A stretch of 64,000 nucleotides of DNA from Clostridia bacterium (GTDB lineage: Bacteria > Bacillota > Clostridia > Christensenellales > CAG-138), in contig DATMYE010000026.1 in NCBI GenBank assembly GCA_035561095.1, positions 7,917 through 71,916 of the forward strand, written 5' to 3'. This document shows positions 4,448-53,843 of the stretch, one piece after another. The first letter of the stretch is position 1, and each line of letters begins with the position of its first letter. The translations under genes and the position numbers were made by a program. The notes beneath the pieces were generated by a model, which had not been told where the DNA came from, made no database searches, and worked only from the letters and a program-made list of their open reading frames with translations.

Positions 4448-5233
4448 CTAGATGGTTTCTTTAGATGAAAACAAATAGCTGGCCATGCACATCGATCCCA
4501 GCGTGCATTCTGTATTGATAGACGATATTGCATCGTCTGCATCGCTCGCGCCCAGAATATAAAGCAGCGGGGCAAAATGATCCATCGACGGAACGGAAAG
4601 CTCTGCGGACTGTCCCTGCCGCTCAAAGTGAATCACCGCGTCGTGGTCCTTGTCCAGCACGGCTTTCTGAATATAACGGTCAAACTCCAGCGCCCAGGGC
4701 TGCCCGCTGTTCATTCGCCAGTCAACACGGGCGAGATTATGCACCACGTTGCCGCTGCCAAAGATCAGCACGCCTTCGTCGCGCAGCGGGATGAGTTTCT
4801 GGCCGATGGCATAGTGCTCCTCCGGCGTCAGCATTGCGTTGATGCTGAGCTGCACGATCGGGATATCCGCTTTCGGGAAGACGCGGTGCAGGACAGACCA
4901 GGTTCCGTGATCGATGCCCCAGTTGTTGTCGATGCTTACAGAGTCGCCGATCAGCGCGCGTGTTCTGTGCGCAAGTTCCGGCGAACCGGGAGCAGGGTAT
5001 TTCAGGTGATACAGCTCTTCTGGAAAACCATACATATCGTAGATCATTGTTGGCGTCGGCGAATCGTTGACTTTTGTGCCGCGCGTAAACCAGTGCGCGG
5101 AGACGGAGAGAATCGCTTTGGGTTTCTCCAAAGTGGTTCCAAGTGCGCTCCAGGCACGGGAATATTCGTTGTCTTCGATTGCATTCATGGGTGAGCCGTG
5201 TCCGACAAACAGTACAGGCATTCTTTGATTCAT
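4448..5233 (-). CDS. Class III extradiol dioxygenase (4,5-DOPA dioxygenase/YgiD-like)
   Basis: MPVLFVGHGSPMNA and an overall LigB-like pattern. SD AGGTGA lies 6 nt upstream of the ATG. Confidence 0.85.
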   Translation of the reverse strand: MNQRMPVLFVGHGSPMNAIEDNEYSRAWSALGTTLEKPKAILSVSAHWFTRGTKVNDSPTPTMIYDMYGFPEELYHLKYPAPGSPELAHRTRALIGDSVSIDNNWGIDHGTWSVLHRVFPKADIPIVQLSINAMLTPEEHYAIGQKLIPLRDEGVLIFGSGNVVHNLARVDWRMNSGQPWALEFDRYIQKAVLDKDHDAVIHFERQGQSAELSVPSMDHFAPLLYILGASDADDAISSINTECTLGSMCMASYLFSSKETI

Positions 5234-5303
5234 TTATTTTCACCTCTCATTGTGGTTGGGTATTTTGCGTGGCATAGAGGCGCACATACCAATTGATAGT
5301 TTC

Positions 5304-5332
5304 ATACTATCCCTAACATTCCGTCTTGTAAA
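5304..5332 (-). promoter_or_regulatory. Candidate promoter of the dioxygenase-to-hydrolase gene string
   Basis: Minus strand TTTACA-17 nt-TAGTAT. Confidence 0.45.
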
Positions 5333-5368
5333 GTATCTTTGGCACACAACAATGTTTCCATAAACTAC

Positions 5369-5397
5369 TTGACAGATCAAAAGAAGCATGATATAAA
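5369..5397 (+). promoter_or_regulatory. Promoter of the TetR gene
   Basis: TTGACA-17 nt-TATAAA with an extended TG (TGaTATAAA). Confidence 0.65.
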
Positions 5398-5407
5398 ATG
5401 AACGATC

Positions 5408-5433
5408 AATCAATGAATGAATGTTCAATGATT
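5408..5433. promoter_or_regulatory. Candidate TetR operator (inverted repeat)
   Basis: AATCAATGAA-tgaatg-TTCAATGATT, 10-nt arms with one mismatch, located just downstream of the -10 box. Confidence 0.5.
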
Positions 5434-5448
5434 TTGCGAGGTGACGAT

Positions 5449-6024
5449 ATGAAGATTCGAGACGAGCAAAAAGAAAAGCGCAAACAGGAGATTCTCTATG
5501 CCGGATTGAGCCTGTTCATCCATAAGGGATATTCCGGCACGACGATCAAGGACATTGCAGGCGCGGTCGGGATGAGCGCGGGACTGATGTTTCACTACTT
5601 CGCTTCGAAGGAAGAGCTTTATTTGGCGCTGGTGTCACAGGGTGTAGAGGGACCCATGAACAGCCTGGATCCCATGGGGCTGGAACCGCTTGCGTATTTT
5701 GATGCGACCGCGGAGCGAATCCTGAGCTATATCAAAGCGGAGCCGTTTGTCGCGAAGATGTTTGTGCTGATGAATCAGGCATATTACAGCGAGGATGTGC
5801 CCGCAAGTGTCAAGGAGCTGCTGAAGGGGTTTGACGTCTATTCTCCGACCGCGGCGCTGATTCGGCAGGGGCAGGCCAACGGCACAATCCGCAGCGGAGA
5901 CCCGCTTGCGCTTGCGATTGCGTTCTGGAGTGCGATACAGGGCGTTGCGGATTCGATCGCGATGTATCCGGACATGCCGTGTCCACAGGGAGAGTGGATC
6001 ACGGACATCCTCCGGGCAAAATAA
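5449..6024 (+). CDS. TetR/AcrR family transcriptional regulator
   Basis: N-terminal HTH region (ILYAGLSLFIHKGYSGTTIKDIAGAVGMSAGLMFHYF). The ATG at 5449 has GAGGTGA upstream. Confidence 0.85.
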   Translation: MKIRDEQKEKRKQEILYAGLSLFIHKGYSGTTIKDIAGAVGMSAGLMFHYFASKEELYLALVSQGVEGPMNSLDPMGLEPLAYFDATAERILSYIKAEPFVAKMFVLMNQAYYSEDVPASVKELLKGFDVYSPTAALIRQGQANGTIRSGDPLALAIAFWSAIQGVADSIAMYPDMPCPQGEWITDILRAK

Positions 6025-8433: not shown

Positions 8434-8889
8434 TTAATACTTGGTCTGATCCTTCAGATAATAAACCTGCTTCATGTTCTCGCCGAAGATGCCGACCTTT
8501 TGCGTGTCGGGATAGAAGCAGACCTCGGGATTGTGCATCGTATCAAAATCGAGATACAGCAGCGGCTCGGTTTCGGAAAGATTCGTGAGCTGGTGCGCGC
8601 CCGTTTCTCCGGTCGGGAAGAAGATGGAGTCGCCGGCTGCGACTTCCTGCTCGCCTTCCGGCGTGCGGAGAAGACCGCGGCCATTGAGGATGAAGAAGCA
8701 TTCTTCGTTGATCGTGTGGTAGTGGTAGGGGAAGCCCGCTTTCTTCGGCGGCAGCTTGATCAGCGCGGCAACGCAGCCCTTCGCTTCCGCGCGGGAAACG
8801 AGGTCGATCTTTTCGTAATCATGGACTTCATGATCCGGTCTGCGTGTCCAGACGGCGTCCGGAGAGTTGGTGTGGCGGATGATGGACAT
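8434..8889 (-). CDS. Cupin domain protein
   Basis: Both cupin motifs are present: YHYHTINEECFFILNG and GDSIFFPTGETGAHQLTN. Confidence 0.8.
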   Translation of the reverse strand: MSIIRHTNSPDAVWTRRPDHEVHDYEKIDLVSRAEAKGCVAALIKLPPKKAGFPYHYHTINEECFFILNGRGLLRTPEGEQEVAAGDSIFFPTGETGAHQLTNLSETEPLLYLDFDTMHNPEVCFYPDTQKVGIFGENMKQVYYLKDQTKY

Positions 8890-8955
8890 GGTGGCGCCTC
8901 CTAGTGTGACTATAGGTTTGCTTACATTGTATAATAATTGATTCTTCCCCAGAAT

Positions 8956-9693
8956 TTAACTAATGTTTCCATTTACATTTAGTCCGTTTGAAGGTTGCTT
9001 ATTAAGCGCCTTTTCTAGTCTATCAAATGTTAAGTAAATAGATTCGAATTCTTCTTCGGTGTATACGGTCGTAGAATGAGAAATTTCATTTCTAAAATTG
9101 AAAATCGTTTCATAATCTTCTTTGAGATTCTCATCAATAGACGACAGATAGTCGCGCTTCCAATAGTAGGCATAATTATCTTCTTTAGGAGGCAACCGGC
9201 TTCTAAATAGTTGATCGAAATCTTTCCATCTAAGTAAAAAATTGGCAACATAAGTAGTGTAGCTAACTGCACGTTTGGGTTTATACTTCTCATTAAAAAG
9301 TACTTCGAATAGAGTTATAGCAGTTTCACAGTAAGATTCGACTTGAGATGCGTCTATCGTTATGCAATTACCGTTGTGATACAATTGGTTTCTTATTCTA
9401 TGATACCATTCAATATCCTCAAAAAAGACAATATCACTTAGCTCGTTGTTATATTTCTCAAGTAGATCAAGTAGACTTGAAAAGGAATTCTCAGCTTCTC
9501 CGATTTCTCTCTTTGAAGGAACATTTCGCTTTATTATTCTTCTTGGAAGCGATAAATATGTCAGGATAGATAGTTCCACCGCATTGTCAATAGAAATAAA
9601 TGCGATTCGCTTGTCGAAATCGGATTTAGTAATGATATGCTCCCAGGCATGGTCTAGCAACTCCTTCGGGCCGATAATCCAACCTTTTTTCAT
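8956..9693 (-). CDS. Hypothetical protein with two RNxxxH motifs (tandem HEPN-like), low-GC
   Basis: 245-aa ORF with AGGTGG 7 nt upstream of the ATG. RNQLYH is at residues 101-106 (nt 9376-9393) and RNEISH at residues 201-206 (nt 9076-9093), each preceded by helical-looking sequence. About 32-35% GC in sampled lines versus about 62% in the flank. The function call is inference. Confidence 0.6.
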   Translation of the reverse strand: MKKGWIIGPKELLDHAWEHIITKSDFDKRIAFISIDNAVELSILTYLSLPRRIIKRNVPSKREIGEAENSFSSLLDLLEKYNNELSDIVFFEDIEWYHRIRNQLYHNGNCITIDASQVESYCETAITLFEVLFNEKYKPKRAVSYTTYVANFLLRWKDFDQLFRSRLPPKEDNYAYYWKRDYLSSIDENLKEDYETIFNFRNEISHSTTVYTEEEFESIYLTFDRLEKALNKQPSNGLNVNGNIS

Positions 9694-9750
9694 ACTGAAA
9701 CCACCTGTTTGTTTTCTTCATAATAGATTACGATGATCAATAAAGCGAGC

Positions 9751-9780
9751 AAAAAGCTCTCCATTTCTGAAGAGCTTTTC
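9751..9780 (-). terminator. Terminator of the tRNA operon (hairpin usable on both strands)
   Basis: AAAAGCTCT-ccatttctga-AGAGCTTTT immediately after the tRNA-Leu 3' end. Confidence 0.7.
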
Positions 9781-9867
9781 TGGTGCAGGAAACAGGACTT
9801 GAACCTGCATGAGTGTGACCTCACACGGACCTGAACCGTGCGCGTCTGCCAATTCCGCCATTCCTGC
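9781..9867 (-). tRNA. tRNA-Leu (anticodon CAG), class II long variable arm, CCA encoded
   Basis: Manual fold: acceptor GCAGGAA/TTCCTGC, anticodon loop TTCAGGT, T-loop GGTTCAAGTCC. Confidence 0.9.
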
Positions 9868-9881
9868 AATGGTGAGATGAT

Positions 9882-9966
9882 TGGTGGATGGGGATGGATT
9901 CGAACCATCGAAGTCTACGACAACGGATTTACAGTCCGCTCCCTTTGGCCGCTCGGGAACCCATCC
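9882..9966 (-). tRNA. tRNA-Tyr (anticodon GTA), long variable arm, CCA encoded
   Basis: Manual fold: acceptor GGATGGG/CCCATCC, anticodon loop CTGTAAA. Confidence 0.9.
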
Positions 9967-10014
9967 ACGTAAAAGTGTGTGTGGAATCGGCTATTCACTT
10001 TTCAAGGAAAACAG

Positions 10015-10090
10015 TGGAGCTGGTGATGGGACTCGAACCCGCAACCTGCTGATTACAAATCAGCTGCTCTGCCAATTGAGCTACACCAGC
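10015..10090 (-). tRNA. tRNA-Thr (anticodon TGT), CCA encoded
   Basis: Manual fold: acceptor GCTGGTG/CACCAGC, anticodon loop TTTGTAA. There is one C.A mismatch in the T stem. Confidence 0.85.
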
Positions 10091-10099
10091 CAGCAAATC

Positions 10100-10175
10100 T
10101 GGTGCCTCAGAGTGGACTTGAACCACCGACACAGGGATTTTCAGTCCCTTGCTCTACCAGCTGAGCTACCGAGGC
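10100..10175 (-). tRNA. tRNA-Phe (anticodon GAA), CCA encoded
   Basis: Manual fold: anticodon stem-loop AGGGA-CTGAAAA-TCCCT and GGTTCAAGTCC T-arm. Confidence 0.9.
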
Positions 10176-10183
10176 AAAAATAA

Positions 10184-10260
10184 TGGCGACCCGGAGGGGG
10201 CTCGAACCCCTGACCTCCAGCGTGACAGGCTGGCGTACTAACCAACTGTACTACCGGGCC
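10184..10260 (-). tRNA. tRNA-Asp (anticodon GTC), CCA encoded
   Basis: Manual fold: anticodon stem-loop CCAGC-CTGTCAC-GCTGG. Confidence 0.9.
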
Positions 10261-10298
10261 ATAATATAAACATTGCCATCTGGCATCTCAAGCGAAAG

Positions 10299-10375
<77 letters not shown>

Positions 10376-10391
10376 AAGTACCTGAAAAAAA

Positions 10392-10466
10392 TGGTGACCC
10401 CGAGGAGAATCGAACTCCTGTTACCGCCGTGAAAGGGCGGTGTCTTGACCGCTTGACCACGGGGCC
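10392..10466 (-). tRNA. tRNA-Glu (anticodon TTC), CCA encoded
   Basis: Anticodon stem-loop CCGCC-CTTTCAC-GGCGG. Confidence 0.9.
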
Positions 10467-10471
10467 ACTTC

Positions 10472-10548
10472 TGGTCGGGGTGAAAGGATTTGAACCTTCG
10501 GCCCCATGCTCCCAAAGCACGTGCGCTACCGGACTGCGCTACACCCCG
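10472..10548 (-). tRNA. tRNA-Pro (anticodon TGG), CCA encoded
   Basis: Acceptor CGGGGTG/CACCCCG, anticodon loop TTTGGGA. Confidence 0.9.
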
Positions 10549-35767: not shown

Positions 35768-37687
35768 TTATTCATCATCGTCTGTCGTGAGCGCGCTGAC
35801 CTCGAACTCCGCCTGCTCCCAGTCGCTGTAGCAGGTTTCAACCAACTGCCGCTGCGCATCCAGTTCCGCATAGACGGTTTTCGCCGCCTCAAAATCGCTC
35901 GCAATCTGCGGATCGAACGCCTTCCCCTGCAGCGCTTTGAGCTTCGCTTCTTCGGTGTGGACGCGTTCCTCCGCCTTGCGCAGCGCGGATTTTGCTTTGA
36001 CGAGTGCGCTTTTGCGCTCTTTGGCGAGTTGATAGTCGTTCTTGCTGACAGGTGCTTCCTTTTCCTTCGGCGCGGTGCTTTCCGCGAGAAATTCCTTATA
36101 CGCGTCCCAGTCGCCTTCAAACTCGCGCATGCCGTCCTCGTCCATGATGATGATCCGGTCGGCGATACGGTTTGCAAGATAGCGGTCGTGGGTGACGATC
36201 AGCATCGTTCCGCCGTAGTCGCTGAGTGCACCTTCGAGCGCTTCGCAGGACGGGATGTCGAGGTGGTTGGTCGGCTCGTCGAGAAAGAGCACGTTGCTGC
36301 CGTTGAGCATGAGCTTGAGCAGCTGGATGCGCGCGTATTCCCCGCCGGAGAGATCGCTCATGTGTTTGAATACATCGTCCCCGCGGAATAGAAACGAACC
36401 CAGCATGTTTCTCAGCTGCTTGGTGTCAAAGCGCGGGAACATGCCGTTGAGCGCTTCCAGCACTGTGCGCGGATCGTTCGGGCGAATCGATCCCTGCTCG
36501 TAGTAGCCGACGTGCACGTTGGAGCCGAGTTTATAGCTGCCGGAATCCGGCTCAATCTTGTTGGTGAGTATCTTGAGCAGTGTAGTTTTGCCGCAGCCGT
36601 TTGCGCCCAATAGACACACTTTCTCGTCGCGCCGGATCATCAAATCGAGGCTGCGGAAGATCTCCCGCTCGCCGAAGCGCTTGCTCAAATCCTTGCAGAC
36701 GACGACTTCGTTTGCGGTCAGTGCGTCTGCCCTGAGGTGAAAGTGAATCCCCTCCGGCGCGTCCTCCGGCTTGACAAGCGTGCTCTTGATGCGCTCGATC
36801 TGCTTCTCCTTCGAGGCGATGGTAACGTAGTTGCGCGCCTGGTTCCATCTGCGCTGCTGCTCGATGATGCCTTCAATGCGCTTGATCTCGCGCAGGGTGT
36901 TTTGGTATTTCCGCATGGCGAACTCGCGCTCATCCATCTTCTTTTCCATGGACTGGGTGTAGTTGCCGGAAAATTGGTTCATCGAGCCGTTTTCCAGCTC
37001 GAAGATGCGGTTGCAGACACGATCCAGAAAATAGCGGTCGTGGGAAATCAGCACAAACGCACCGCGAAACGCCGAAAGATAGGACTCCAGCCACTCCAGA
37101 GACGCAATGTCAAGGTGGTTTGTCGGCTCGTCGAGCAGAAGAAGATCGGCATCCGACAGCAGAATCTTCGCAAGCGACGCTTTGCGCATTTGTCCGCCGC
37201 TCATCACGGAGATCGGCTGCTCAAGCTGCGCTTCTGAAAAGCCGAGGCCAAGCAAGGTTGAACGCGTGCGCGCGCGGTAGGTCAATCCCCCGTCGGCGGT
37301 GTATCGATCCTGCAAATCCGCCTGTCTGCGGATGAGCGATTCGCTTGCGCCCTGTTGCTCAATCTTCTCGGCGATCTCGTGCAGCTCGCGCTCCGCGCGC
37401 ATCCATTTGCCGCTGGCTTCGAGCACGGCTTCGTAGAGTGTTTGACCGTTGCCCCAGTTCGGGCTTTGATCCAGCATCGCAACCGATGCGTTTTTTGTAA
37501 CGGAAAGCTGGCCGCGTCCGTCATGCGGCTCCAGCCCTGCAATCATGCGCATCAGTGTGCTCTTGCCGCAGCCATTGACCCCGACGAGGCCGACGTGATC
37601 CTGCTCAAACACATCAAACGCGATATCTGAAAATAAGGTTCTCTCTCCGAAGCTCTTCTCAAGCTCCTGCGCGTGAATCAGCGACAT
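35768..37687 (-). CDS. ABC-F family ATPase (translation factor type, no TM domain)
   Basis: Two ABC cassettes (GVNGCGKST/LSGGQ and GANGCGKTT/LSGGE) and a C-terminal coiled coil. Start trimmed to the ATG at 37687, with GGAG 9 nt upstream. Confidence 0.9.
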   Translation of the reverse strand: MSLIHAQELEKSFGERTLFSDIAFDVFEQDHVGLVGVNGCGKSTLMRMIAGLEPHDGRGQLSVTKNASVAMLDQSPNWGNGQTLYEAVLEASGKWMRAERELHEIAEKIEQQGASESLIRRQADLQDRYTADGGLTYRARTRSTLLGLGFSEAQLEQPISVMSGGQMRKASLAKILLSDADLLLLDEPTNHLDIASLEWLESYLSAFRGAFVLISHDRYFLDRVCNRIFELENGSMNQFSGNYTQSMEKKMDEREFAMRKYQNTLREIKRIEGIIEQQRRWNQARNYVTIASKEKQIERIKSTLVKPEDAPEGIHFHLRADALTANEVVVCKDLSKRFGEREIFRSLDLMIRRDEKVCLLGANGCGKTTLLKILTNKIEPDSGSYKLGSNVHVGYYEQGSIRPNDPRTVLEALNGMFPRFDTKQLRNMLGSFLFRGDDVFKHMSDLSGGEYARIQLLKLMLNGSNVLFLDEPTNHLDIPSCEALEGALSDYGGTMLIVTHDRYLANRIADRIIIMDEDGMREFEGDWDAYKEFLAESTAPKEKEAPVSKNDYQLAKERKSALVKAKSALRKAEERVHTEEAKLKALQGKAFDPQIASDFEAAKTVYAELDAQRQLVETCYSDWEQAEFEVSALTTDDDE

Positions 37688-37716
37688 CGTGTTGTTCTCC
37701 AATAGTAAGACAGTTT

Positions 37717-37745
37717 ATTTTACCATAGCGAACACGTATTTGCAA
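37717..37745 (-). promoter_or_regulatory. Candidate ABC-F promoter
   Basis: Minus strand TTGCAA-17 nt-TAAAAT with an extended TG. Confidence 0.55.
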
Positions 37746-37995
37746 AAGCAGACGGCGGTGTTTTATGCAAACAAACCGTGTCAAATTTCATTGTTTTCTC
37801 GAGTAATTCCACATGAATTTTCCTGTAAACGGTACATAACAAACAGATTGTATCCGTCGTGTACAAAATCTTGTTACATTTTGGCATCCATGTTTTGAAA
37901 ATGTTCAAACCAAAGTGCGACAGAATCGCTATAATAAGAGTATTGACAGGCATATTCTCCATGCGATTTTCTAAGCAACGAGTGAGGTATCATAT

Positions 37996-39294
37996 TTGAA
38001 TACGCCCCGCCTACCTTCCGGAAAACCGAATAAGCACGTCTTCCCGCCTTCCGCGCGCACATGGATTTTGACCATTGCGGGCGGTTGCGTGATTGCGTTT
38101 ATCATTCTGCCGCTGGCGATCAACTATTTCACCGGCGCCAACGCGGTTGCGCAGGAAGCGGACCGCATCGTCCGCGAAGCGACGCCGACGCCGATTCCTT
38201 TCAGCGCCGATGTGCTCGCGCCGACCTCCTGCGCGGTCGATACCCCGCAGCCGGAACCGGAAGCAACCGCGGGCGTGATGGTATCGCAGTTCACACTGCT
38301 GCAGGAGAACGACGATTACCCGACCGTTTCCCAGCTGCAAAACAGGTTGATGGAGCTCGGCTACCTCGATTCCGACGAACCGACAACGGTCTATAACGCT
38401 GCGACCACGGTTGCCGTTTCGCTCTTCCAGCGCACGATCAGCGCACCCATGGACGGCGTCGCGACCGGAGAGCTTCAGGAGCATCTCTTCAGCGCGGAAG
38501 CCAAGCCGTATGAGATCAAGCTTGGCGACAGCGGCACGGACGTGGAGAGCATGCAGTCCCGCCTCAATGAGCTGGGCTATTACACCGATAAGATCAACGG
38601 CTATTTCGGCGTTGCAACTGAGGAGGCGCTACGGGCGTTTCAGGTGAAGAATAAGATCACGGATGACAGCGTGTTCAACGTGGAAGACCGCGACCTGCTC
38701 TATTCGCCGCAAGCGCGCCCGAAGATCGACCCGACACCGACGCCTTCACCGAAACCCACACCGAAGCCGACCAAGAAACCGACCACGACCAAGAAACCCA
38801 CGACGACCTCCTCCGGCGGCACGACCACGAACTCCGGCAGCAGCAGCACCGCGGCACCCGTTGTGACGGAAGCACCGGTCACCGAAGAAGTTAGCTACAA
38901 TGCATCCTATAGCCCCGACGGGCTGATCTCGGTTGCGAGCGCAATGCTCGGCAAACCCTACTCCTGGTCGGAGGAAAGCCCGTCCAGAGGCTTCGATTGC
39001 TCGGGGCTAGTCTACTTCTCTCTGCGCACCTGCGGCGTCAGCACGAGCCGCTACAGCGCGGCGGGGTTCTCCTCCGTGAGCGGCTGGACGGAGATCACCT
39101 CCATCGGCGATCTGCAGAAAGGCGATCTAGTGTTCTTTAAGAACGATACGTCAGACCGTGTGAGCCACACCGGCATCTACGCAGGCGGCGGAAAATTCAT
39201 CCACGCTTCGTCCAGCGCCGGCAAGGTCATCACGAGTTCGATCTCCACCGCGTACTGGACGCGCAATTTTGTCAACGGCAGGCGCGTGTTCTGA
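37996..39294 (+). CDS. Cell-wall hydrolase: TM anchor, two PG_binding_1 repeats, Pro/Thr linker, NlpC/P60 domain
   Basis: Motifs LQNRLMELGYLD and MQSRLNELGYYT, a PTPTPSPKPTPKPTKKPTTTKKPTTT linker, and catalytic FDCSGLVYF...HTGIY...IHAS. TTG start, less certain. Confidence 0.85.
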   Translation: MNTPRLPSGKPNKHVFPPSARTWILTIAGGCVIAFIILPLAINYFTGANAVAQEADRIVREATPTPIPFSADVLAPTSCAVDTPQPEPEATAGVMVSQFTLLQENDDYPTVSQLQNRLMELGYLDSDEPTTVYNAATTVAVSLFQRTISAPMDGVATGELQEHLFSAEAKPYEIKLGDSGTDVESMQSRLNELGYYTDKINGYFGVATEEALRAFQVKNKITDDSVFNVEDRDLLYSPQARPKIDPTPTPSPKPTPKPTKKPTTTKKPTTTSSGGTTTNSGSSSTAAPVVTEAPVTEEVSYNASYSPDGLISVASAMLGKPYSWSEESPSRGFDCSGLVYFSLRTCGVSTSRYSAAGFSSVSGWTEITSIGDLQKGDLVFFKNDTSDRVSHTGIYAGGGKFIHASSSAGKVITSSISTAYWTRNFVNGRRVF

Positions 39295-39295
39295 T

Positions 39296-40180
39296 ATGGA
39301 AGCTTGTATGCTGTGTCCCCGTATGTGCGGGGCGGATCGAACCAAACAGCGCGGCGTTTGCGGCGCGGATGATCAGGTGCGCGTGGCAAAGCTCATGCTG
39401 CACCAGTGGGAGGAGCCGTTTATCAGCGGATCGCGCGGCTCCGGCACCGTGTTTTTCTCCGGCTGCAACCTCGGCTGCGTCTATTGCCAGAATCACGAAA
39501 TCCGGGACGGCGGCATCGGTGACATCTTTGACGCAAACTCGCTTGCGGAAGCATACCTGACGCTTCAGCAGGAAGGCGCACACAACATCAATCTTGTAAC
39601 CGCGGCGCCTTATGTTCCTCAAGTTGCTAAGAGTCTCCGCCTTGCGAGATCCCGTGGGCTGCATGTCCCAGTCGTTTACAATTCCAGCGGCTATGAGTGC
39701 GTCGAGGCGATTCAATCTCTGGAAGGCCTGGTTGACATCTATCTGCCGGATTTCAAGTACGTTTCTCCCCTGCTCGCGGGGAAATTCTCCAACGCACCGG
39801 ATTACGCGGAGGTTGCTTCCGCTGCAATTCAGGAGATGTATCGTCAGGCCGGTGATCTGATTTTGGATGATGAAGGTATCGCAACGAGGGGACTCGTCAT
39901 CCGTCATCTCATCCTGCCGGGCTGCGCAGATGATTCCAGAAAGGTGCTGGACAGGATCGTCTCCTTCCTTCCGCTCTCCACGCACATCTCGCTGATGAGC
40001 CAGTATACGCCACAGGAGCATACAACCGAGTTCCCGTTAAACCGCAGAATCACGCAAAGAGAGTATGACCGCGTGATCTCGTATGCACTGTCGCTGGGGT
40101 TACACAACATCTTGTTACAGGAGCGTGACTCGGCAAAATCCGTTTACACGCCACAGTTCACAGAACCGATAAAAATTTGA
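39296..40180 (+). CDS. Radical SAM protein (PflX-like activating-enzyme family)
   Basis: CNLGCVYCQN (CX3CX2C) and an N-terminal CPRMCGADR..GVCG cluster. The ATG lies 1 nt after the upstream stop. Confidence 0.85.
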   Translation: MEACMLCPRMCGADRTKQRGVCGADDQVRVAKLMLHQWEEPFISGSRGSGTVFFSGCNLGCVYCQNHEIRDGGIGDIFDANSLAEAYLTLQQEGAHNINLVTAAPYVPQVAKSLRLARSRGLHVPVVYNSSGYECVEAIQSLEGLVDIYLPDFKYVSPLLAGKFSNAPDYAEVASAAIQEMYRQAGDLILDDEGIATRGLVIRHLILPGCADDSRKVLDRIVSFLPLSTHISLMSQYTPQEHTTEFPLNRRITQREYDRVISYALSLGLHNILLQERDSAKSVYTPQFTEPIKI

Positions 40181-40202
40181 CACAATTAACGCATAGATTT
40201 GC

Positions 40203-40231
40203 TTGCAATTGCATAATTCGGGTGATATACT
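40203..40231 (+). promoter_or_regulatory. Orphan sigma-A promoter with no downstream ORF
   Basis: TTGCAA-17 nt-TATACT with an extended TG (TGaTATACT). The 10-bp palindrome TGCAATTGCA overlaps the -35. Confidence 0.6.
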
Positions 40232-40386
40232 CGAACCATAAAAGTTCATAAGTTTCCGTCCGTTATGTGTGTTTTTTCATTACCGATTTCCTCCTTAAAA
40301 CCGCGTAACCGAACTACATCGTAACATCATAATTACTTTCTGGTGGATAGGGCACCATCGGAAAGGCTTAGCGGACGGAAAGTACA

Positions 40387-40564
40387 AAGGAGCTAGGAAA
40401 CTAGCTCCTTGTCTATTTTATTTAGCAGTTCGAAACTGCCTCAACATTTCGGTTTTTATCCGGAGCCAAGAAATTGGCTCCTTGTCTATTTTATCCAGCA
40501 GTTCGAAGCTGCCTCCACATTTCGGTTTTCATCTGAAGCTAGGAAACTAGCTCCTTGTCTATTT
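40387..40564 (+). repeat. Tandem repeat, 73-nt period, 2.4 copies, each starting with a GAAA-tetraloop hairpin
   Basis: Copies start at 40388, 40461 and 40534, and copies A and B differ at about 10 of 73 positions. Hairpin GGAGCTAG-gaaa-CTAGCTCC in copies A and C versus GGAGCCAA-gaaa-TTGGCTCC in copy B gives two compensatory pairs. Confidence 0.85.
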
Positions 40565-40583
40565 AATAGAATCTAAACAGAAA

Positions 40584-40614
40584 AGAGCAGGAACTATCTC
40601 CTGCTCTTTTTATT
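40584..40614. terminator. Bidirectional intrinsic terminator (candidate RNA on +, glcK on -)
   Basis: AGAGCAGGA-actatc-TCCTGCTCT followed by TTTTTATT on the + strand and TTTTCTGTTT on the - strand. Confidence 0.7.
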
Positions 40615-40645
40615 GGGTTTGGGCGACGCCCAAACAAATTATCCC

Positions 40646-41593
40646 TTATCTTTGCAAATACAGCATCGCGGCGCCGACGATACCTGCGTCGTTTTTCATC
40701 TCCGCGGTCACGATTTTCGCGTGGTTCTTGAAGAACGCATACTTCTTCGCGTACTCGCGGATCGGAGCAAGCAGAAATTCGCCGTCGTTGCTGACACCAC
40801 CGCCAAAGGCGATGATCTCCGGATCGAACAGCGCAATCGCCGTGCAGGCTGTAGCGCCAAGATAATCCGTAAACCGGTTATAGACTTCGCACGCAACCGG
40901 ATCGCCTTCCCGCGCGCAGTCCATGACGAGTTTTGCGTTGATCTTGGTCAGATCCCCCTGCGCGCGCTGATACATCGCGCTCTCGTGATGCTGACCCGCG
41001 GCTTTTCTGCCTTCGCGAACGAGCGCTGTCGCGGAGCAGTACGACTCGATGCAGCCGCGCTGACCGCAGGTGCAGGGTTCGCCGCCAAAGAGCAGCACCG
41101 CGTGCCCGAACTCAAACCCGTTCTTCTTACCGCCGACGAAAATCTTTCCGTCGAGTACAAGCCCGCCGCCGATGCCGGTGCCAATCGTGATCAAAAGGCC
41201 GGAAGAGCAGCCGCGGAATGCGCCGCTGTAATACTCAGCGAGTGCCGCCGCGTTTGCATCGTTTTCGACATAGACCGTAACGCCGGGGAACCCGTCGCCG
41301 ACGAGCTTGCAGAGCGGGAAATCGTGATAATCGAGGTTGTGCGCATCGATGACCACACCGCGGTCATAGTCGATGCTACCGGGCACGGCAAGGCCAATTC
41401 CCGCAATCTCCTCCGTTCGGAGATGATTCTCTTCGATCAGGTCGCGGATGAGCGACTGAATCGTCGCAATCGAATCCTTCGCCTCTCCCGTATGCGGAAA
41501 CGGAAGAGCTTTTTTACTCACAAGCGTATAGTCGTCCTTCACGACGCCAGCCGCGATCTTGCTTCCGCCGATATCTACACCAATACTGTACAT
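40646..41593 (-). CDS. glcK: ROK-family glucokinase
   Basis: GVDIGGSKI N-terminus and the zinc motif CTCGQRGCIESY. Confidence 0.88.
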   Translation of the reverse strand: MYSIGVDIGGSKIAAGVVKDDYTLVSKKALPFPHTGEAKDSIATIQSLIRDLIEENHLRTEEIAGIGLAVPGSIDYDRGVVIDAHNLDYHDFPLCKLVGDGFPGVTVYVENDANAAALAEYYSGAFRGCSSGLLITIGTGIGGGLVLDGKIFVGGKKNGFEFGHAVLLFGGEPCTCGQRGCIESYCSATALVREGRKAAGQHHESAMYQRAQGDLTKINAKLVMDCAREGDPVACEVYNRFTDYLGATACTAIALFDPEIIAFGGGVSNDGEFLLAPIREYAKKYAFFKNHAKIVTAEMKNDAGIVGAAMLYLQR

Positions 41594-45215: not shown

Positions 45216-46574
45216 TTAGAGAGACTTCTTCTCTTTTGCGAAGAATGCGCCGAGACCCATGATGACGGCGAACACGACAAGGTACCAGACTACCGCCATT
45301 TTGTGCGACACGATCGCAGCATAGACCATGAACAGGCAGCCTGCCACGCCGAGCACTGGCATCAGAATGCGCTTGAAGAAGCCGAGGTCCTTCTGCTTGA
45401 CGAGGAACGCGATAAACATCGGGATGTACATAGCGTACACGGTGATGATCGGCAGCTCCGAAGAGTCAAACGACAGCTTGCCAAACCACGGCACTTCGAC
45501 GAGGTTTGCGCCAAAGAAATAGGCAAGCCAGAGCACGCACAGGAGCAGACCCAGCACGGACGAGTTGGTCGCCATGTTGGTCTTCGGGCTGACTTCGCAA
45601 TAGACTTCCGGCTGCGGGCCGACTTTGCGGGCGGCCAGCGAGTAGAAGCCGCGCGTGCAGCCCATCATGAGGCCGTTGAGCGTGCCGAGGCAGGAGATGA
45701 TGACGAACACGAACAGCAGCGTGCCGCCCACGCTGGAGAACAGCGTCGAGAACGCAACCTTTGCGCCTTCCTGACCGTTTTCCATCAGAGTTGCGTTCGG
45801 AACCACGCCGGCAAGACCGACATAGTACAGAATATAGACCACGATGACGATCGCGGCACCGGCAACCAGCGCGATGGGCAGGTTCTTTTTCGCATCCTTG
45901 AGCTCAGCGTTGATGCTGGTCGCGATGACCCAGCCTTCATATGCAAACGCGGTTGCGCAGACAGCGGTCAGCAGCGCGCCGCTCTTGGAGGTGACTTCGG
46001 TGACCGCGTTGGAGAAATTCTGCACGGTCATGCCGTTGGCAAGACCCACGATGACGCCGACCACGCCCATCAACACGAGCGGGATGAGCTTGATGACCGT
46101 CGTGGTGACCTGGAACTTACCCGCGATCTTCGGCGAGAGCGCGTTGATGGCGTAGCTCGCGATGAGGAACACCGCGGAGAGCACCATGCACTCGGGTCCT
46201 ACGATCGACCAGCCGAAGAGAACCGCGGTGTAGCGCGCGGAAACCCACGCGAGCACGCTGGTCAGCGTCGGATAATAGATGGTGGCGAAGAACCAGCCCA
46301 TCATATAGCCGTAGGTTTTGCCGACGGTGACTTCCGAATAGTCCACGACGCCGTTGACATACTCGTACTTGGTCGCCATGACGGCGAACACGTAGGAGCA
46401 GATCATCATGATCACGCCGCCGATGATCCACGCGAGAATGCCCAGCGGCAGGTTGCCGCCGGTGACGCCGAGGATCTTTTCCGCTTTAAAGAAAACGCCG
46501 CTTCCAATGACGATACCCACGACCATCGAAATAGCGGTAAACAGGCCATATTTCTTTTTGAGTTGTGTTTCCAT
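45216..46574 (-). CDS. APC-family amino acid permease
   Basis: About 12 predicted hydrophobic helices and N-terminus METQLKKKYGLFTAISMVVGIVIGSGVF. Start trimmed to 46574. Confidence 0.88.
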   Translation of the reverse strand: METQLKKKYGLFTAISMVVGIVIGSGVFFKAEKILGVTGGNLPLGILAWIIGGVIMMICSYVFAVMATKYEYVNGVVDYSEVTVGKTYGYMMGWFFATIYYPTLTSVLAWVSARYTAVLFGWSIVGPECMVLSAVFLIASYAINALSPKIAGKFQVTTTVIKLIPLVLMGVVGVIVGLANGMTVQNFSNAVTEVTSKSGALLTAVCATAFAYEGWVIATSINAELKDAKKNLPIALVAGAAIVIVVYILYYVGLAGVVPNATLMENGQEGAKVAFSTLFSSVGGTLLFVFVIISCLGTLNGLMMGCTRGFYSLAARKVGPQPEVYCEVSPKTNMATNSSVLGLLLCVLWLAYFFGANLVEVPWFGKLSFDSSELPIITVYAMYIPMFIAFLVKQKDLGFFKRILMPVLGVAGCLFMVYAAIVSHKMAVVWYLVVFAVIMGLGAFFAKEKKSL

Positions 46575-46629
46575 TACCCAATCCCCTTTAAAAATGTTGA
46601 TGATTAGTACGCTGTTCAACCCCGTTACA

Positions 46630-46658
46630 TTTATACAGTATGCAGGATGTGTTGTCAA
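46630..46658 (-). promoter_or_regulatory. Permease promoter
   Basis: Minus strand TTGACA-17 nt-TATAAA. Confidence 0.6.
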
Positions 46659-46728
46659 TAAACTTCATCCGATCCCCTAAAACTTCTTTTCGCGACAGTT
46701 TCACATCGATCTGTGGCGGTTCTTTTCG

Positions 46729-46757
46729 TTGACGTGATTGGGTAGTAAAGCTAAAAT
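46729..46757 (+). promoter_or_regulatory. Alpha-galactosidase promoter
   Basis: TTGACG-17 nt-TAAAAT. Confidence 0.6.
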
Positions 46758-46812
46758 TGAACTAGATTCATCCTCCTGTTATTGAGACGCAACTGGTCGG
46801 GAAAGGACGCAT

Positions 46813-49149
46813 ATGATCGCCTATTCAGACAATATGTTTACGCTGGAGACCGAACACACCAGCTATCTGTTTCGCGTGACGCCGTTCGGGCACCTCGAGC
46901 ACATCTATTACGGCAACCGCATTCCGCAGAACGAAATCGAGCCGCTGCTCACCAAACGCATCATTATGCACGGCAGCTCGGTGATGTATTCGACCAAAGA
47001 CGATACCTACTGCCTCGACAATATCCCTCTGGAGTGGACCGGAGTGGGCTGCGGGGACTATCGCCAGACGCCGATCGAAGTCAAGCTCGCGGACGGAACG
47101 TTCCACACGGATTTCGTCTATGAGTCGCACGAGATCGTCGCCGGTTGCATTCCTATGGAGACTCTGCCCAACGCATATGAAGAAGAGAACACGGCGCAAA
47201 CGCTCTGTATAAAGCTGAATGACGCAGTCGCTGGACTGCAGCTGCTGCTCTACTATACCGTCTTCCCTGCCGTCGATGTGATCTCGCGTCGCGCGGTGCT
47301 TTGCAATACCGGCACTGGCGCGGTCTCCGTGCGCCGGATCATGAGCATGCAGCTCGATCTGGACAATGAAGGATTCTCCCTTGTGACCTTCGACGGCGCA
47401 TGGGCAAAGGAGACGCACCGGCACGACCGCAAGCTGCAATACGGACAATATGTCAACTCCTCCGTCACCGGCGCTTCCAGCAATCGGCACAATCCGGGGT
47501 TCCTGCTTTATGCCGACGGCGCAACGCAATCCCACGGGAACGTCTATGGCTTCAACCTTGTCTACAGCGGCAACCACATCGGGATTGCGGAGCGTTCCCC
47601 GTTTGATCTCGTGCGTGTGCAGCTCGGCGTCCATCCGCAGAGCTTTGATTGGACGCTGGCGTCCGGCGAACGGTTCGAAACGCCGGAGGCGGTGATGACG
47701 TTCTCACCGGACGGCTTCAACGGCATGAGCGCGCATTTTCACGACTTCGTGAACGCGCATATCGTCCGCGGAGACTGGAAGGGTAAAGAGCGTCCGGTGC
47801 TCATCAACAACTGGGAAGCCTGTTTTTTTCGGTTTACCCGGAGTAAGCTTCTCCGTCTTGCGCGGCAGGCAAGGCGGCTCGGTGTAGAGCTGTTCGTCCT
47901 CGACGACGGCTGGTTCGGCAAGCGCAACGACGACCATGCGGGCCTTGGCGACTACGACGTGAACACAAAGAAGTTGCCCCGGGGCATGAAATCCTTTGCC
48001 GATGAAATCCGCGCACTAGGTCTGCTGTTCGGTCTCTGGTTTGAGCCGGAGATGGTCAACCCCGACAGCGACCTCTACCGTACGCACCCCGAATACGCGG
48101 TCGCCACGCCCGGGCGAGAGCCGCTGCTCGGCAGAAATCAACTGGTGCTCGATCTATGCAATCCCGCCGTGCGGGACTATATTGTGCATAACGTGTCCGC
48201 GATTCTCGACGACGCGAAGATCGACTATGTCAAATGGGACATGAACCGCCACATCAGCGACGCGTGTTCCCCCGTTCTAGCAAATCAGGGAGAGTTTTAT
48301 CATCGTTACATCATCGGGCTTTACGATGTGCTCGCGCGCATCTTCCGCCCGCGTCCGCAAATTCTGCTAGAGTCCTGCTCCAGCGGCGGAAATCGTTTCG
48401 ACCTCGGCATGCTCTGCTTCTCTCCGCAGGTTTGGTCGAGCGACGACACGGATGCCGTTGAACGACTGAAGATTCAGGAGGGTTTGAGCTATCTCTATCC
48501 CCTCTCCGCGATGGGTGCACACGTCTCCGCCTCGCCCAACCAACAGACGCTGCGGCAAACGCCGATTGCGACGCGGTTCAATGTTGCTAGCTTCGGCTGC
48601 CTCGGCTATGAACTTGATCTCAAGCACCTGACGATGCTCGAACGCAAGGAGGTCCGCGAACAGATCGCCTACTATCTTGCGCATCGCAGAACGCTGCAAT
48701 ACGGCAGATTCTTGCGCCATGACACGCCGAAGACCAACAAAGTCTACTGGCAGACCGTGTCCAAGGATCGGCGATATTCTGTTGCCGGATCGTTTCAAAC
48801 GCTCTCGCAGGCAGCGGAGAGCAACGACGTTCTTCCGCTTACAGGGCTGGATCAAACAAAACAGTACCGCATGCAGACCAAGCCGCAGCGCATCTTCATC
48901 CGCAGGTTCGGCGGACTCGTCAACCACCTGCTACCGTTTACGATCAACCCAAACGGGACGTTGTTCCGCTGGACAGATCGGCTGTATGCCATGCAGGACT
49001 GTGTGGAGACGTATTCTGCAAGCGGGCAAACGCTGATGCAGGGTGTACACCTGAACAACCAGTTTGTGGCGACAGGCTACAATGCAAAGGTTCGTATGCT
49101 CGGTGATTTCGGCTCAAACTTGTATGAAATTGACCCAATTGAAGAGTGA
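46813..49149 (+). CDS. Alpha-galactosidase (GH36)
   Basis: 778 aa with DYVKWDMNR and CSSGGNRFD motifs. Confidence 0.92.
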   Translation: MIAYSDNMFTLETEHTSYLFRVTPFGHLEHIYYGNRIPQNEIEPLLTKRIIMHGSSVMYSTKDDTYCLDNIPLEWTGVGCGDYRQTPIEVKLADGTFHTDFVYESHEIVAGCIPMETLPNAYEEENTAQTLCIKLNDAVAGLQLLLYYTVFPAVDVISRRAVLCNTGTGAVSVRRIMSMQLDLDNEGFSLVTFDGAWAKETHRHDRKLQYGQYVNSSVTGASSNRHNPGFLLYADGATQSHGNVYGFNLVYSGNHIGIAERSPFDLVRVQLGVHPQSFDWTLASGERFETPEAVMTFSPDGFNGMSAHFHDFVNAHIVRGDWKGKERPVLINNWEACFFRFTRSKLLRLARQARRLGVELFVLDDGWFGKRNDDHAGLGDYDVNTKKLPRGMKSFADEIRALGLLFGLWFEPEMVNPDSDLYRTHPEYAVATPGREPLLGRNQLVLDLCNPAVRDYIVHNVSAILDDAKIDYVKWDMNRHISDACSPVLANQGEFYHRYIIGLYDVLARIFRPRPQILLESCSSGGNRFDLGMLCFSPQVWSSDDTDAVERLKIQEGLSYLYPLSAMGAHVSASPNQQTLRQTPIATRFNVASFGCLGYELDLKHLTMLERKEVREQIAYYLAHRRTLQYGRFLRHDTPKTNKVYWQTVSKDRRYSVAGSFQTLSQAAESNDVLPLTGLDQTKQYRMQTKPQRIFIRRFGGLVNHLLPFTINPNGTLFRWTDRLYAMQDCVETYSASGQTLMQGVHLNNQFVATGYNAKVRMLGDFGSNLYEIDPIEE

Positions 49150-53118: not shown

Positions 53119-53267
53119 TCGGACTCCTCCGCAAGAAGATCTAAAATCTGTAAGATAGAATTCTATTCCTATTAGTAGTATTTAATAGTCTTATCATATA
53201 GTTTTGTCACATTTTATGCAATGTCAAATCGCACAAACACAGCGAAAAAATTGAAATCCGGAGTAAT

Positions 53268-53480
53268 TTAGCCGATATAAGTGAAACGAACGTAAGTTTT
53301 TCCGTCCCGTTCCACCGTTTCGTTCCACATCGAGGCAGGGCGCACCCATACCCCGTGTTCTCCATAGAGCGCGCGGTATACAACCATCGGTTCCTGCGTT
53401 TCGGAATGCTTGGCGAGATAAAGCACCTCGTACTCGTTTCCTTTGAAATGGCGATACCGCCCGATTTTGATCTCTTCCAT
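53268..53480 (-). CDS. DUF1653 family small protein
   Basis: GRYRHFKGNEYEVL...VVYRALYG pattern. Confidence 0.8.
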   Translation of the reverse strand: MEEIKIGRYRHFKGNEYEVLYLAKHSETQEPMVVYRALYGEHGVWVRPASMWNETVERDGKTYVRFTYIG

Positions 53481-53498
53481 ATGAATCTCCTCCTGTTA

Positions 53499-53843
53499 CT
53501 ATGCAACGAATACAGCCTGTATAAGAAACATGTACAGTGCTGTTCCACAGCCGATGCTGAGCATGACATTTTTGCGCCAGAGATGGATCAGCACGATAAA
53601 CGCGATCGAGATCAGCTCCGGCAGCCCGTGCGGACTAGCCAGAATCGGGACGCTCTTCAGGCAGTAGACGACAAGCAAACCCATCATCACCGGCGGCAGA
53701 ACCGTGCCAAGATAGGTGACCACCGCGGGCGGGGTCTTGCCTTCCGGAAACAGAAAAAACGGCGTAAATCGCGTCGCCATCGCGCCCAGCGCCACGGCGA
53801 GCACCGTCAGGATGTATTGAAGCGGCGTTAATGCAAGTTGCAT
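53499..53843 (-). CDS. azlD: Branched-chain amino acid transport protein AzlD
   Basis: 114-aa hydrophobic protein that overlaps the azlC end. Confidence 0.8.
   Translation of the reverse strand: MQLALTPLQYILTVLAVALGAMATRFTPFFLFPEGKTPPAVVTYLGTVLPPVMMGLLVVYCLKSVPILASPHGLPELISIAFIVLIHLWRKNVMLSIGCGTALYMFLIQAVFVA

Follow-up and report, generated by a model that had tools for sequence, protein, structure and literature searches.

A putative two-HEPN protein encoded between a tRNA operon and a cupin gene is a candidate phage-defence protein of Clostridia

Here we report on a single-gene islet of low guanine-plus-cytosine (GC) content in a 64,000-nucleotide (nt) stretch of DNA from a Clostridia bacterium (assembly GCA_035561095.1, contig DATMYE010000026.1, positions 7,917 to 71,916 of the forward strand). 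We refer to this whole stretch as the window and count all positions from its first letter. The islet holds one open reading frame (ORF) at 8956–9693 on the minus strand, stop codon included, which encodes a putative protein of 245 amino acids (aa). We propose that this product is a stand-alone protein of two divergent HEPN four-helix domains that would act as a ribonuclease (RNase) in phage defence or as a toxin, a reading to which we give a probability of roughly 0.6. Because the site that the gene occupies holds known anti-phage systems in related bacteria, we consider its product a candidate phage-defence protein.

The protein carries two RNxxxH motifs, RNQLYH (R101–H106; 9376–9393, minus strand) and RNEISH (R201–H206; 9076–9093, minus strand), which terminate the predicted helix 3 of the N-terminal and of the C-terminal domain, respectively, and are spaced by exactly 100 residues. 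When the protein's own composition was shuffled 200,000 times, two or more such motifs arose in 0.015% of the shuffles. The gene, which starts with an ATG at 9693–9691 (minus strand), also stands out by its base composition: in 300-nt segments, GC was 0.61 in the cupin gene on one side, 0.33–0.36 across the 245-aa ORF and 0.52–0.57 in the tRNA operon on the other side. Over its whole length, the gene has a GC of 0.351 versus a window mean of 0.56 (standard deviation 0.04), which is about 5 standard deviations lower, and the twelve lowest-GC 738-nt segments of the 64 kb all fall on this islet. The original prediction had described a low-GC islet with an abrupt edge at the terminator of the tRNA operon, two RNxxxH motifs 100 residues apart that follow helices, and the lack of an MNT-type antitoxin, an integrase and an att duplication. 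All of this held: the GC scan (0.33–0.36) and a hairpin at 9751–9780 mark the islet and its edge, predicted helices at residues 91–106 and 188–206 precede the motifs, and neither antitoxin nor integrase nor att duplication was found in 8700–10000. The gene is a genuine coding sequence, and comparison with its orthologue in a metagenomic locus (L004) shows purifying selection on it: the proportion of differences was 0.138 at nonsynonymous sites and 0.771 at synonymous sites (pN/pS), the synonymous divergence being more saturated here than in the flanking genes (0.47–0.63). Elsewhere in the window, milder low-GC stretches (0.39–0.44) were seen at 5001–5700, 37501–38100, 40001–40800, 46401–46900 and 52901–53500, none of them near the 0.33 of the islet; the spots at 37.5–38.1 and 40.0–40.8 kb, which lie mostly between long ORFs, were dropped as candidates.

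The sequence exactly matches P0001, a hypothetical protein from a Clostridia metagenome-assembled genome, and belongs to a large family without a Pfam, NCBIfam or PADLOC model, all homologues of which are annotated as hypothetical. Searches returned 403 homologues at E ≤ 1e-3 in a 90%-clustered database and 840 cluster representatives at 50% identity, and the family ranges over Clostridia, Deltaproteobacteria, Dehalococcoidia and Leptospira plasmids, with homologues on four plasmids of Leptospira interrogans. In the IMG/VR collection two contigs carried a homologue, one of them a serine-recombinase element of Ruminiclostridium herbifermentans, and a tblastn search of GenBank phage genomes gave zero matches.

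Motif 1 was present as RNxxYH in 269 of 269 homologues retrieved, and the invariant residues of the N-domain comprise E11, D36, E40, R101, N102, Y105 and H106. An alignment of 34 sequences likewise revealed D36, N37, E40, R101, N102 and H106 as invariant, with R201 and H206 conserved in at least 90%. A second Rx4H motif, 99–101 residues downstream of the first, was found in 105 of 120 close homologues (88%), 96 of these 105 having N after the R, and in 85 of 130 distant full-length homologues (65%), in which the spacing was more variable. Many distant 50%-identity representatives share only the N-terminal 135–165 residues and differ in their C-termini, and some members add a C-terminal TIR_2/SEFIR domain, an FtsK-gamma winged helix or DUF4431 (P0155, P0191, P0097, P0135 and P0161). 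The TIR fusion seen in some members hints further at involvement in immunity.

HEPN domains have been defined by a four-helix core with an insert between helices 2 and 3, by an Rx4-6H motif that closes helix 3 or opens the loop between helices 3 and 4, in which a polar residue (N, D or H) follows the R, and by an acidic residue conserved in helix 2, usually as part of Ex3[KR] (PMC3710099). AlphaFold models were obtained for the full-length protein, with a predicted local distance difference test score (pLDDT) of 87.1 and a predicted template modelling score (pTM) of 0.82, and for the N-domain (pLDDT 91.4). In these models the N-terminal HEPN-like domain (residues 1–137; 9283–9693, minus strand) is predicted to comprise helices 4–22 and 25–47, a helical insert at 48–90 and helices 91–106 and 115–133, and the C-terminal HEPN-like domain (residues 141–236; 8986–9273, minus strand) helices 148–166, 175–186, 188–206 and 213–231. 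Each Rx4H motif ends helix 3 of its domain (91–106 and 188–206) and enters the loop before helix 4, and N follows R in both the R101 and the R201 motif. The invariant E40 lies in helix 25–47 and would supply the acidic residue of helix 2; the family consensus around it reads E-L-x-I-K (E-x3-K/R), and the window protein has L44. For the C-domain the only acidic candidate is D180 within WKRD, which is conserved among close homologues. The pTM of 0.82 suggests that the two domains keep a fixed arrangement.

Comparison of the N-domain model with the PDB by Foldseek revealed lists dominated by HEPN structures at template modelling (TM) scores of about 0.57–0.68. These included 2q00 (TM 0.59/0.68, probability 0.96), the HEPN domain of sacsin (3o10, TM 0.66), 1ufb and 2hsb (TM 0.56–0.64), as well as 1ylm (YutE), 4nqf, Csm6 8jbb, HEPN toxins 8yuf, 8xdj, and 1wol. 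The full-length model drew long helical false positives from the PDB, and the only entries with a target-normalised TM above 0.5 were HepT and other HEPN entries; the same model matched nothing among the BFVD viral structures. A HEPN-like fold is indicated for the N-domain by its model and by Foldseek, and for the C-domain by the topology of the full-length model.

Sequence profiles pointed in the same direction. In a scan of 76 family members, the most frequent Pfam matches, all sub-threshold, fell into nine HEPN-clan families: RiboL-PSP (15), Swt1 (12), Apea (8), HepT-like (8), DUF4145 (7), LA2681 (4), MAE_28990 (2), HEPN (2) and HepT-like_2 (2). Matches of homologues to HEPN_RiboL-PSP, Swt1 and Apea map to the C-domain (residues ~136–230), and the N-domain matched only LA2681-like HEPN (E 0.004–0.03). 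When a C-domain profile was searched against the PDB, the best relevant matches were the CRISPR-associated 8y7f (E 0.011, aligned on RNxxxHG), the HEPN toxin 7ae9 and Csm6 6tug; an N-domain profile found nothing significant there (Csm6 6tug, E 4.5), a full-length family profile gave spurious matches only, and the query itself matched zero chains among PDB sequences. The C-domain profile retrieved zero proteins at E ≤ 1e-3 from a 5.8-billion-protein database, and a search of the query against PHROGs gave two weak matches of unknown function over residues 187–235 (E 0.03 and 0.11). Membership of the HEPN superfamily is thus well supported by the predicted topology, the motif and the concentration of weak matches, and by no single significant score: no match to an established HEPN model reached significance.

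To place the gene in its genomic context, we compared 15 loci of the same type, namely the window, the metagenomic locus L004 and 13 Christensenellaceae-like relatives obtained by a cupin-protein search of species-representative genomes. L004 and the window are collinear over 7 kb (80.5% nucleotide identity), and the two-HEPN gene occupies the same position in both. Protein identity between the two loci is 75% for the two-HEPN protein, 91% for MutS, 93% for the cupin protein and 85% for MiaB; the acquisition of the two-HEPN gene is therefore not recent. The 13 relatives keep MiaB, tRNA-Leu, the cupin gene and two genes downstream, and the two-HEPN gene is present at the tRNA-Leu/cupin locus in none of them (0 of 13). 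The 87-nt tRNA-Leu gene shows no differences (100% identity) in the 11 relatives with a complete copy, and L014 has the last 66 nt, also identical; the cupin protein is 80–93% identical across the 13 relatives, regardless of the cargo beside it. What lies between these flanks varies: two of the 15 loci carry the two-HEPN gene, the gap is empty (98 bp) in L007 and L013, and known systems fill it in L016 (a fused PARIS AriAB, E 2e-166), L014 (Dodola DolA, 2e-45, and DolB, 5e-96), L011 (an FRG-domain PDC-S15 protein, 3e-47) and L019 (a DUF4145/PD-T7-4 protein, 4e-15). The cargo consists of one or two genes with a GC of 0.33–0.44 versus 0.52–0.60 in the adjacent cupin gene. Conserved flanks, mutually exclusive cargo and known systems in 4 of 15 loci mark the site as a defence hotspot. 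Relatives nearer to the window than L004 by MiaB identity hold different cargo, and turnover of the cargo is therefore fast relative to the divergence of the lineages.

The comparison supports the view that the two-HEPN gene is accessory, mobile and horizontally acquired. A further part of the original prediction, which had proposed a horizontally acquired protein with two HEPN folds, is supported as well: the gene is absent at the locus in the 13 genome relatives, which hold other cargo or an empty gap, and the two folds are favoured by topology and by HEPN-dominated match lists, none formally significant. The motif residues whose conservation the prediction had called on were invariant in the first motif (R101, N102 and H106) and at least 90% conserved in close homologues in the second (R201 and H206). 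In each of these computational checks (fold, motif conservation and accessory status) the outcome favoured the prediction, which stands apart from its remark on partners.

Variation sets in precisely where tRNA-Leu ends (3′), and the terminator hairpin itself varies between loci. In L008 (3144–4000) and L019 (3065–4000) a copy of the terminator CAAGTCGGTTTTCCGGCTTGTTTTTGTTT flanks the cargo on each side, forming a direct repeat of ~30–40 bp; in other loci the terminator of the tRNA operon is replaced by a different hairpin. The cassettes probably replace one another by homologous recombination in the conserved flanks, a route that would require neither an integrase nor att sites.

A second variable site lies just after the cupin gene. 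It holds a conserved protein of ~320 aa (L008 4454–5539, L011 1562–3522 and L012 4454–6411), which had no Pfam or PADLOC match, and also a membrane protein of ~230 aa in L011 and L012; in L018 (2765–4000) the 320-aa family sits before the cupin gene instead. L014 is a 2.8-kb contig (JAEWLZ010000097.1) binned as 'Cyanobacteria bacterium' that has a Christensenellaceae-type locus and a cupin protein 89% identical to that of the window, and it is probably mis-binned. An exact-sequence look-up of the window cupin protein, made to find strain-level variants, returned zero records.

The edges of the islet in the window are well defined, all features lying on the minus strand. Its conserved left flank is an eight-tRNA operon that ends in tRNA-Leu(CAG) (9781–10548, found by ARAGORN), followed directly by a terminator-like 13-bp hairpin (9751–9780; −16.6 kcal/mol, z = −2.96), which forms the upstream edge of the low-GC islet and also precedes different cargo in L004, L011 and L018. 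Its conserved right flank is the 151-aa cupin gene (8434–8889), for the L004 orthologue of which Pfam Cupin_2 was recorded. Between the hairpin and the gene, putative expression signals could be read from the sequence (9701–9725): a TATTAT −10-like hexamer at 9720–9725, which L004 has equally far from its ATG, and an AGGTGG ribosome-binding site at 9701–9706, 7 nt before the ATG. Downstream, a spacer of 66 bp (8890–8955), the 3′ junction of which was compared across loci, separates the gene from the cupin gene and lacks the terminator-plus-promoter block (TTGCAG-N17-TATAAT) that precedes the cupin gene in relatives. With this block missing and a gap of 66 bp, the cupin gene may be co-transcribed with the HEPN-like cassette or may depend on signals inside the cassette.

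The islet offers no room for a partner ORF, because its spacers measure 87 bp upstream of the gene, where the only content is the hairpin, and 66 bp downstream. The ORF list and a repeat scan of 8700–10000 revealed no integrase, MNT gene, flanking direct (att-like) repeat, tandem repeat or repeat array. The adjacent MNT antitoxin that characterizes type VII toxin–antitoxin systems is accordingly absent, the flanks being the tRNA operon and the cupin gene, and the same region holds no repeat array of the kind that would indicate a type III (AbiF-like) system with an RNA antitoxin.

Family members elsewhere likewise have no evident partner. Neighbours within 3 kb were clustered for 97 loci (74 non-redundant) from genomes, metagenomes and IMG/VR, and across the 74 non-redundant loci no neighbour family was common beyond near-identical loci; nor was there a nucleotidyltransferase among the most frequent families in 132 neighbour proteins from 62 loci. 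The neighbours are heterogeneous and include integrases, serine recombinases, transposases, Shedu, BrxHI, GajA/AriA-like ATPases, SLFN/AlbA_2 proteins and metabolic genes, and homologues elsewhere do not adjoin tRNA operons. One homologue (P0004; L003 3989–5884) follows immediately after a 631-aa OLD-like AAA_15/AAA_21-TOPRIM ATPase, a pairing that is not kept elsewhere. In high-GC genomes with a family member (L025–L029, ~1400–2860), a nearby slot alternates between a DUF5677 and an SLFN-AlbA_2 protein, which suggests another small variable site.

In the mechanism that we propose, the protein would be a metal-independent endoribonuclease with an RNxxxH motif at the end of helix 3 in each domain. 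The enzyme would stay silent in uninfected cells until a phage-derived cue switched it on, and the cutting of cellular RNA would then abort the infection. We draw this mechanism by analogy with the solo HEPN defence proteins HepS, DARNA and ApeA, which cleave tRNA; among such proteins the anticodon loop of tRNA is the most frequent target. We infer the RNase activity, the defence role, the trigger and the RNA target alike. The active site would form either between both domains of one chain or between the N-domains of two chains. A more ambitious version, which we advance tentatively and against the odds, would make the protein the founding member of a widespread solo family of ~240 aa with a Cas13-like composite site, and hence a new single-gene abortive-infection system at an undescribed tRNA-adjacent hotspot in Christensenellaceae-like gut and environmental Clostridia.

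Several results weigh against a two-HEPN defence RNase. The query matched zero models in Pfam, NCBIfam and PADLOC even at E ≤ 10, the best Pfam score of any homologue was 25.8 bits against a cut-off of 28.4 (HEPN_RiboL-PSP), and the Foldseek E-values of 0.3–3 are not significant. Fold support for the C-domain comes from the full-length model and sequence profiles, and two hhalign runs of the N-terminal against the C-terminal half found zero similarity, so that an internal duplication is not demonstrable from sequence. Motif 2 is missing in 12–35% of homologues and is therefore possibly dispensable. The cargo of the hotspot is not always defence: L012 carries an S-adenosylmethionine methyltransferase, and the gap proteins of L008 (212 aa), L009 (299 aa, on the opposite strand), L010 (144 aa) and L017 (357 aa) are unknown. 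A consensus promoter scan from the terminator to the ATG gave no sigma-70-like site, and the promoter of the gene is for this reason putative. The near-absence of the family from phage collections neither supports nor refutes a defence role.

The loss of motif 2 in part of the family bears on a different arrangement of the active site, to which we give somewhat less than even odds. Here, only the N-domain would be catalytic, with a site formed between the N-domains of a homodimer or oligomer, as in HepS, DARNA and HepT, and the C-domain would be a sensor, a regulator or a degenerate copy, so that the protein would not be a genuine intramolecular tandem-HEPN nuclease like Cas13. HEPN domains typically dimerise into bipartite sites (PMC13043305; bioRxiv papers on DARNA), 269 of 269 homologues keep motif 1 and its surroundings unchanged, many 50%-identity clusters share residues 1–135/165 only, and because motif 2 is partly lost in distant homologues, N–N pairing between chains is a possible arrangement. 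However, where motif 2 is kept it retains the RNxxxH form (N in 96 of 105) at a fixed spacing of 99–101 residues, which points to selection on catalysis-like residues, and the pTM of 0.82 suggests that the two domains are packed in a fixed way. This alternative concerns the geometry of the active site and is compatible with the defence reading. The invariant residues also bear on the idea that the protein is a HEPN-like scaffold without nuclease activity, such as a nucleotide- or ligand-binding adaptor or regulator. Several HEPN families are indeed non-catalytic (PMC3710099) and all HEPN similarity here is sub-threshold, but non-catalytic HEPN proteins have typically lost the Rx4-6H motif (PMC3710099), whereas in this family R, N and H are invariant and the acidic residue of helix 2 is kept; we regard this option as improbable.

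The genomic evidence speaks to two further explanations. In the first, the gene would serve not against phages but as a selfish toxin or addiction module, or as a toxin whose antitoxin escaped recognition; this would agree with the mobility, AT-richness and patchy distribution of the gene and with the frequent use of HEPN domains as toxins (PMC3710099). We nevertheless hold it to be unlikely, given that no neighbour is conserved in 74 loci, that the spacers are too short for a partner ORF, that neither upstream tandem repeats (as for a type III RNA antitoxin) nor an MNT gene were found, and that bona fide defence systems occupy the same site in relatives. The position of the gene directly downstream of eight same-strand tRNA genes, and the lack of a clear promoter of its own, would fit a housekeeping RNA-processing enzyme tied to the tRNA operon. 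Such a role is effectively refuted by the presence/absence pattern: 13 relatives with the same operon flank lack the gene and have unrelated genes in its stead, a terminator hairpin stands between the gene and the operon, and homologues elsewhere are not next to tRNA operons.

If a two-HEPN defence RNase is confirmed, it would add a minimal, partner-less effector to HepS, ApeA and DARNA, from which it would differ by having two motif-bearing HEPN-like domains within ~240 residues, an arrangement known from Cas13, and it would offer a compact system in which to learn how a HEPN site is silenced and switched. The tRNA-Leu/cupin hotspot is useful in itself, since it has yielded five or more uncharacterised proteins besides four known systems, could be mined for more and lies in a bacterial group poorly explored for phage defence. 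Single-gene defence candidates are numerous, and to a specialist the finding may appear solid and unsurprising.

The original prediction had called a HEPN protein without a partner unusual, a view that is outdated, as HepS, ApeA and DARNA are all solo (PMC13043305; bioRxiv 10.64898/2026.02.22.705581). HepS (HEPN Solo defence element) of the Gifsy-1 prophage is an abortive-infection anticodon nuclease with one HEPN domain and the motif residues R100-N101-H105; it assembles into a tetramer and cuts tRNA anticodons in response to a phage tail-tip protein (PMC13043305). The window protein resembles HepS in being the product of a small, partner-less single gene on mobile DNA with R-N-x3-H at an almost equal position, but HepS has a single HEPN domain and is a tetramer, whereas in the window protein a second HEPN-like domain adds a motif of its own. 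No sequence or profile match to HepS (structure 9OIK) was found, and it was not among the top 50 Foldseek matches, the presence of 9OIK in the PDB sets used being unconfirmed. DARNA/PD-T7-3 combines an N-terminal HEPN RNase with a second, C-terminal domain, is activated by single-stranded DNA and cleaves host tRNA, and ApeA has been described as a HEPN-domain antiviral protein (both in bioRxiv 10.64898/2026.02.22.705581 and 10.64898/2026.01.26.701840). DARNA shares with the window protein the plan of a single-protein defence with an N-terminal HEPN and a second domain; however, its C-terminal domain is a non-catalytic Pds5-like fold, whereas the second domain of the 245-aa window protein carries Rx4H. 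The query matched zero single-gene HEPN families in PADLOC at E ≤ 10. Because it has no sequence or model match to them, we place the window protein outside the HepS, DARNA and ApeA families.

Cas13 is a far larger, CRISPR RNA (crRNA)-guided protein. Like Cas13, the window protein would have two HEPN domains with an Rx4H motif each in one polypeptide, able to form one composite site, but its gene has no adjacent repeat array and pairing of the motifs within the chain is only hypothetical for it. With the HepT/MntA type VII system it shares the fold of a HEPN RNase toxin, and the toxins 8yuf, 8xdj and 6m6w are among its structural neighbours; there, however, an MNT gene is adjacent, and none was found here or in the 74 other loci. 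The Pfam families RiboL-PSP-HEPN (PF18735), Swt1-like HEPN (PF18731) and Apea-like HEPN (PF18739) provide the best profile matches of the C-domain, centred on the helix with Rx4H, but all scores lie below the curated cut-offs. At the level of the locus, the closest analogues are the defence hotspots that lie between conserved core genes, such as those of P2 and P4 (PMC9122126). The hotspot described here instead sits on the chromosome of Christensenellaceae-like Clostridia, enclosed by a tRNA operon and a cupin gene, has no integrase and takes up one or two genes, yet it resembles the P2/P4 type in its conserved flanks and in its mutually exclusive low-GC cargo, which includes PARIS, Dodola, PDC-S15 and PD-T7-4.

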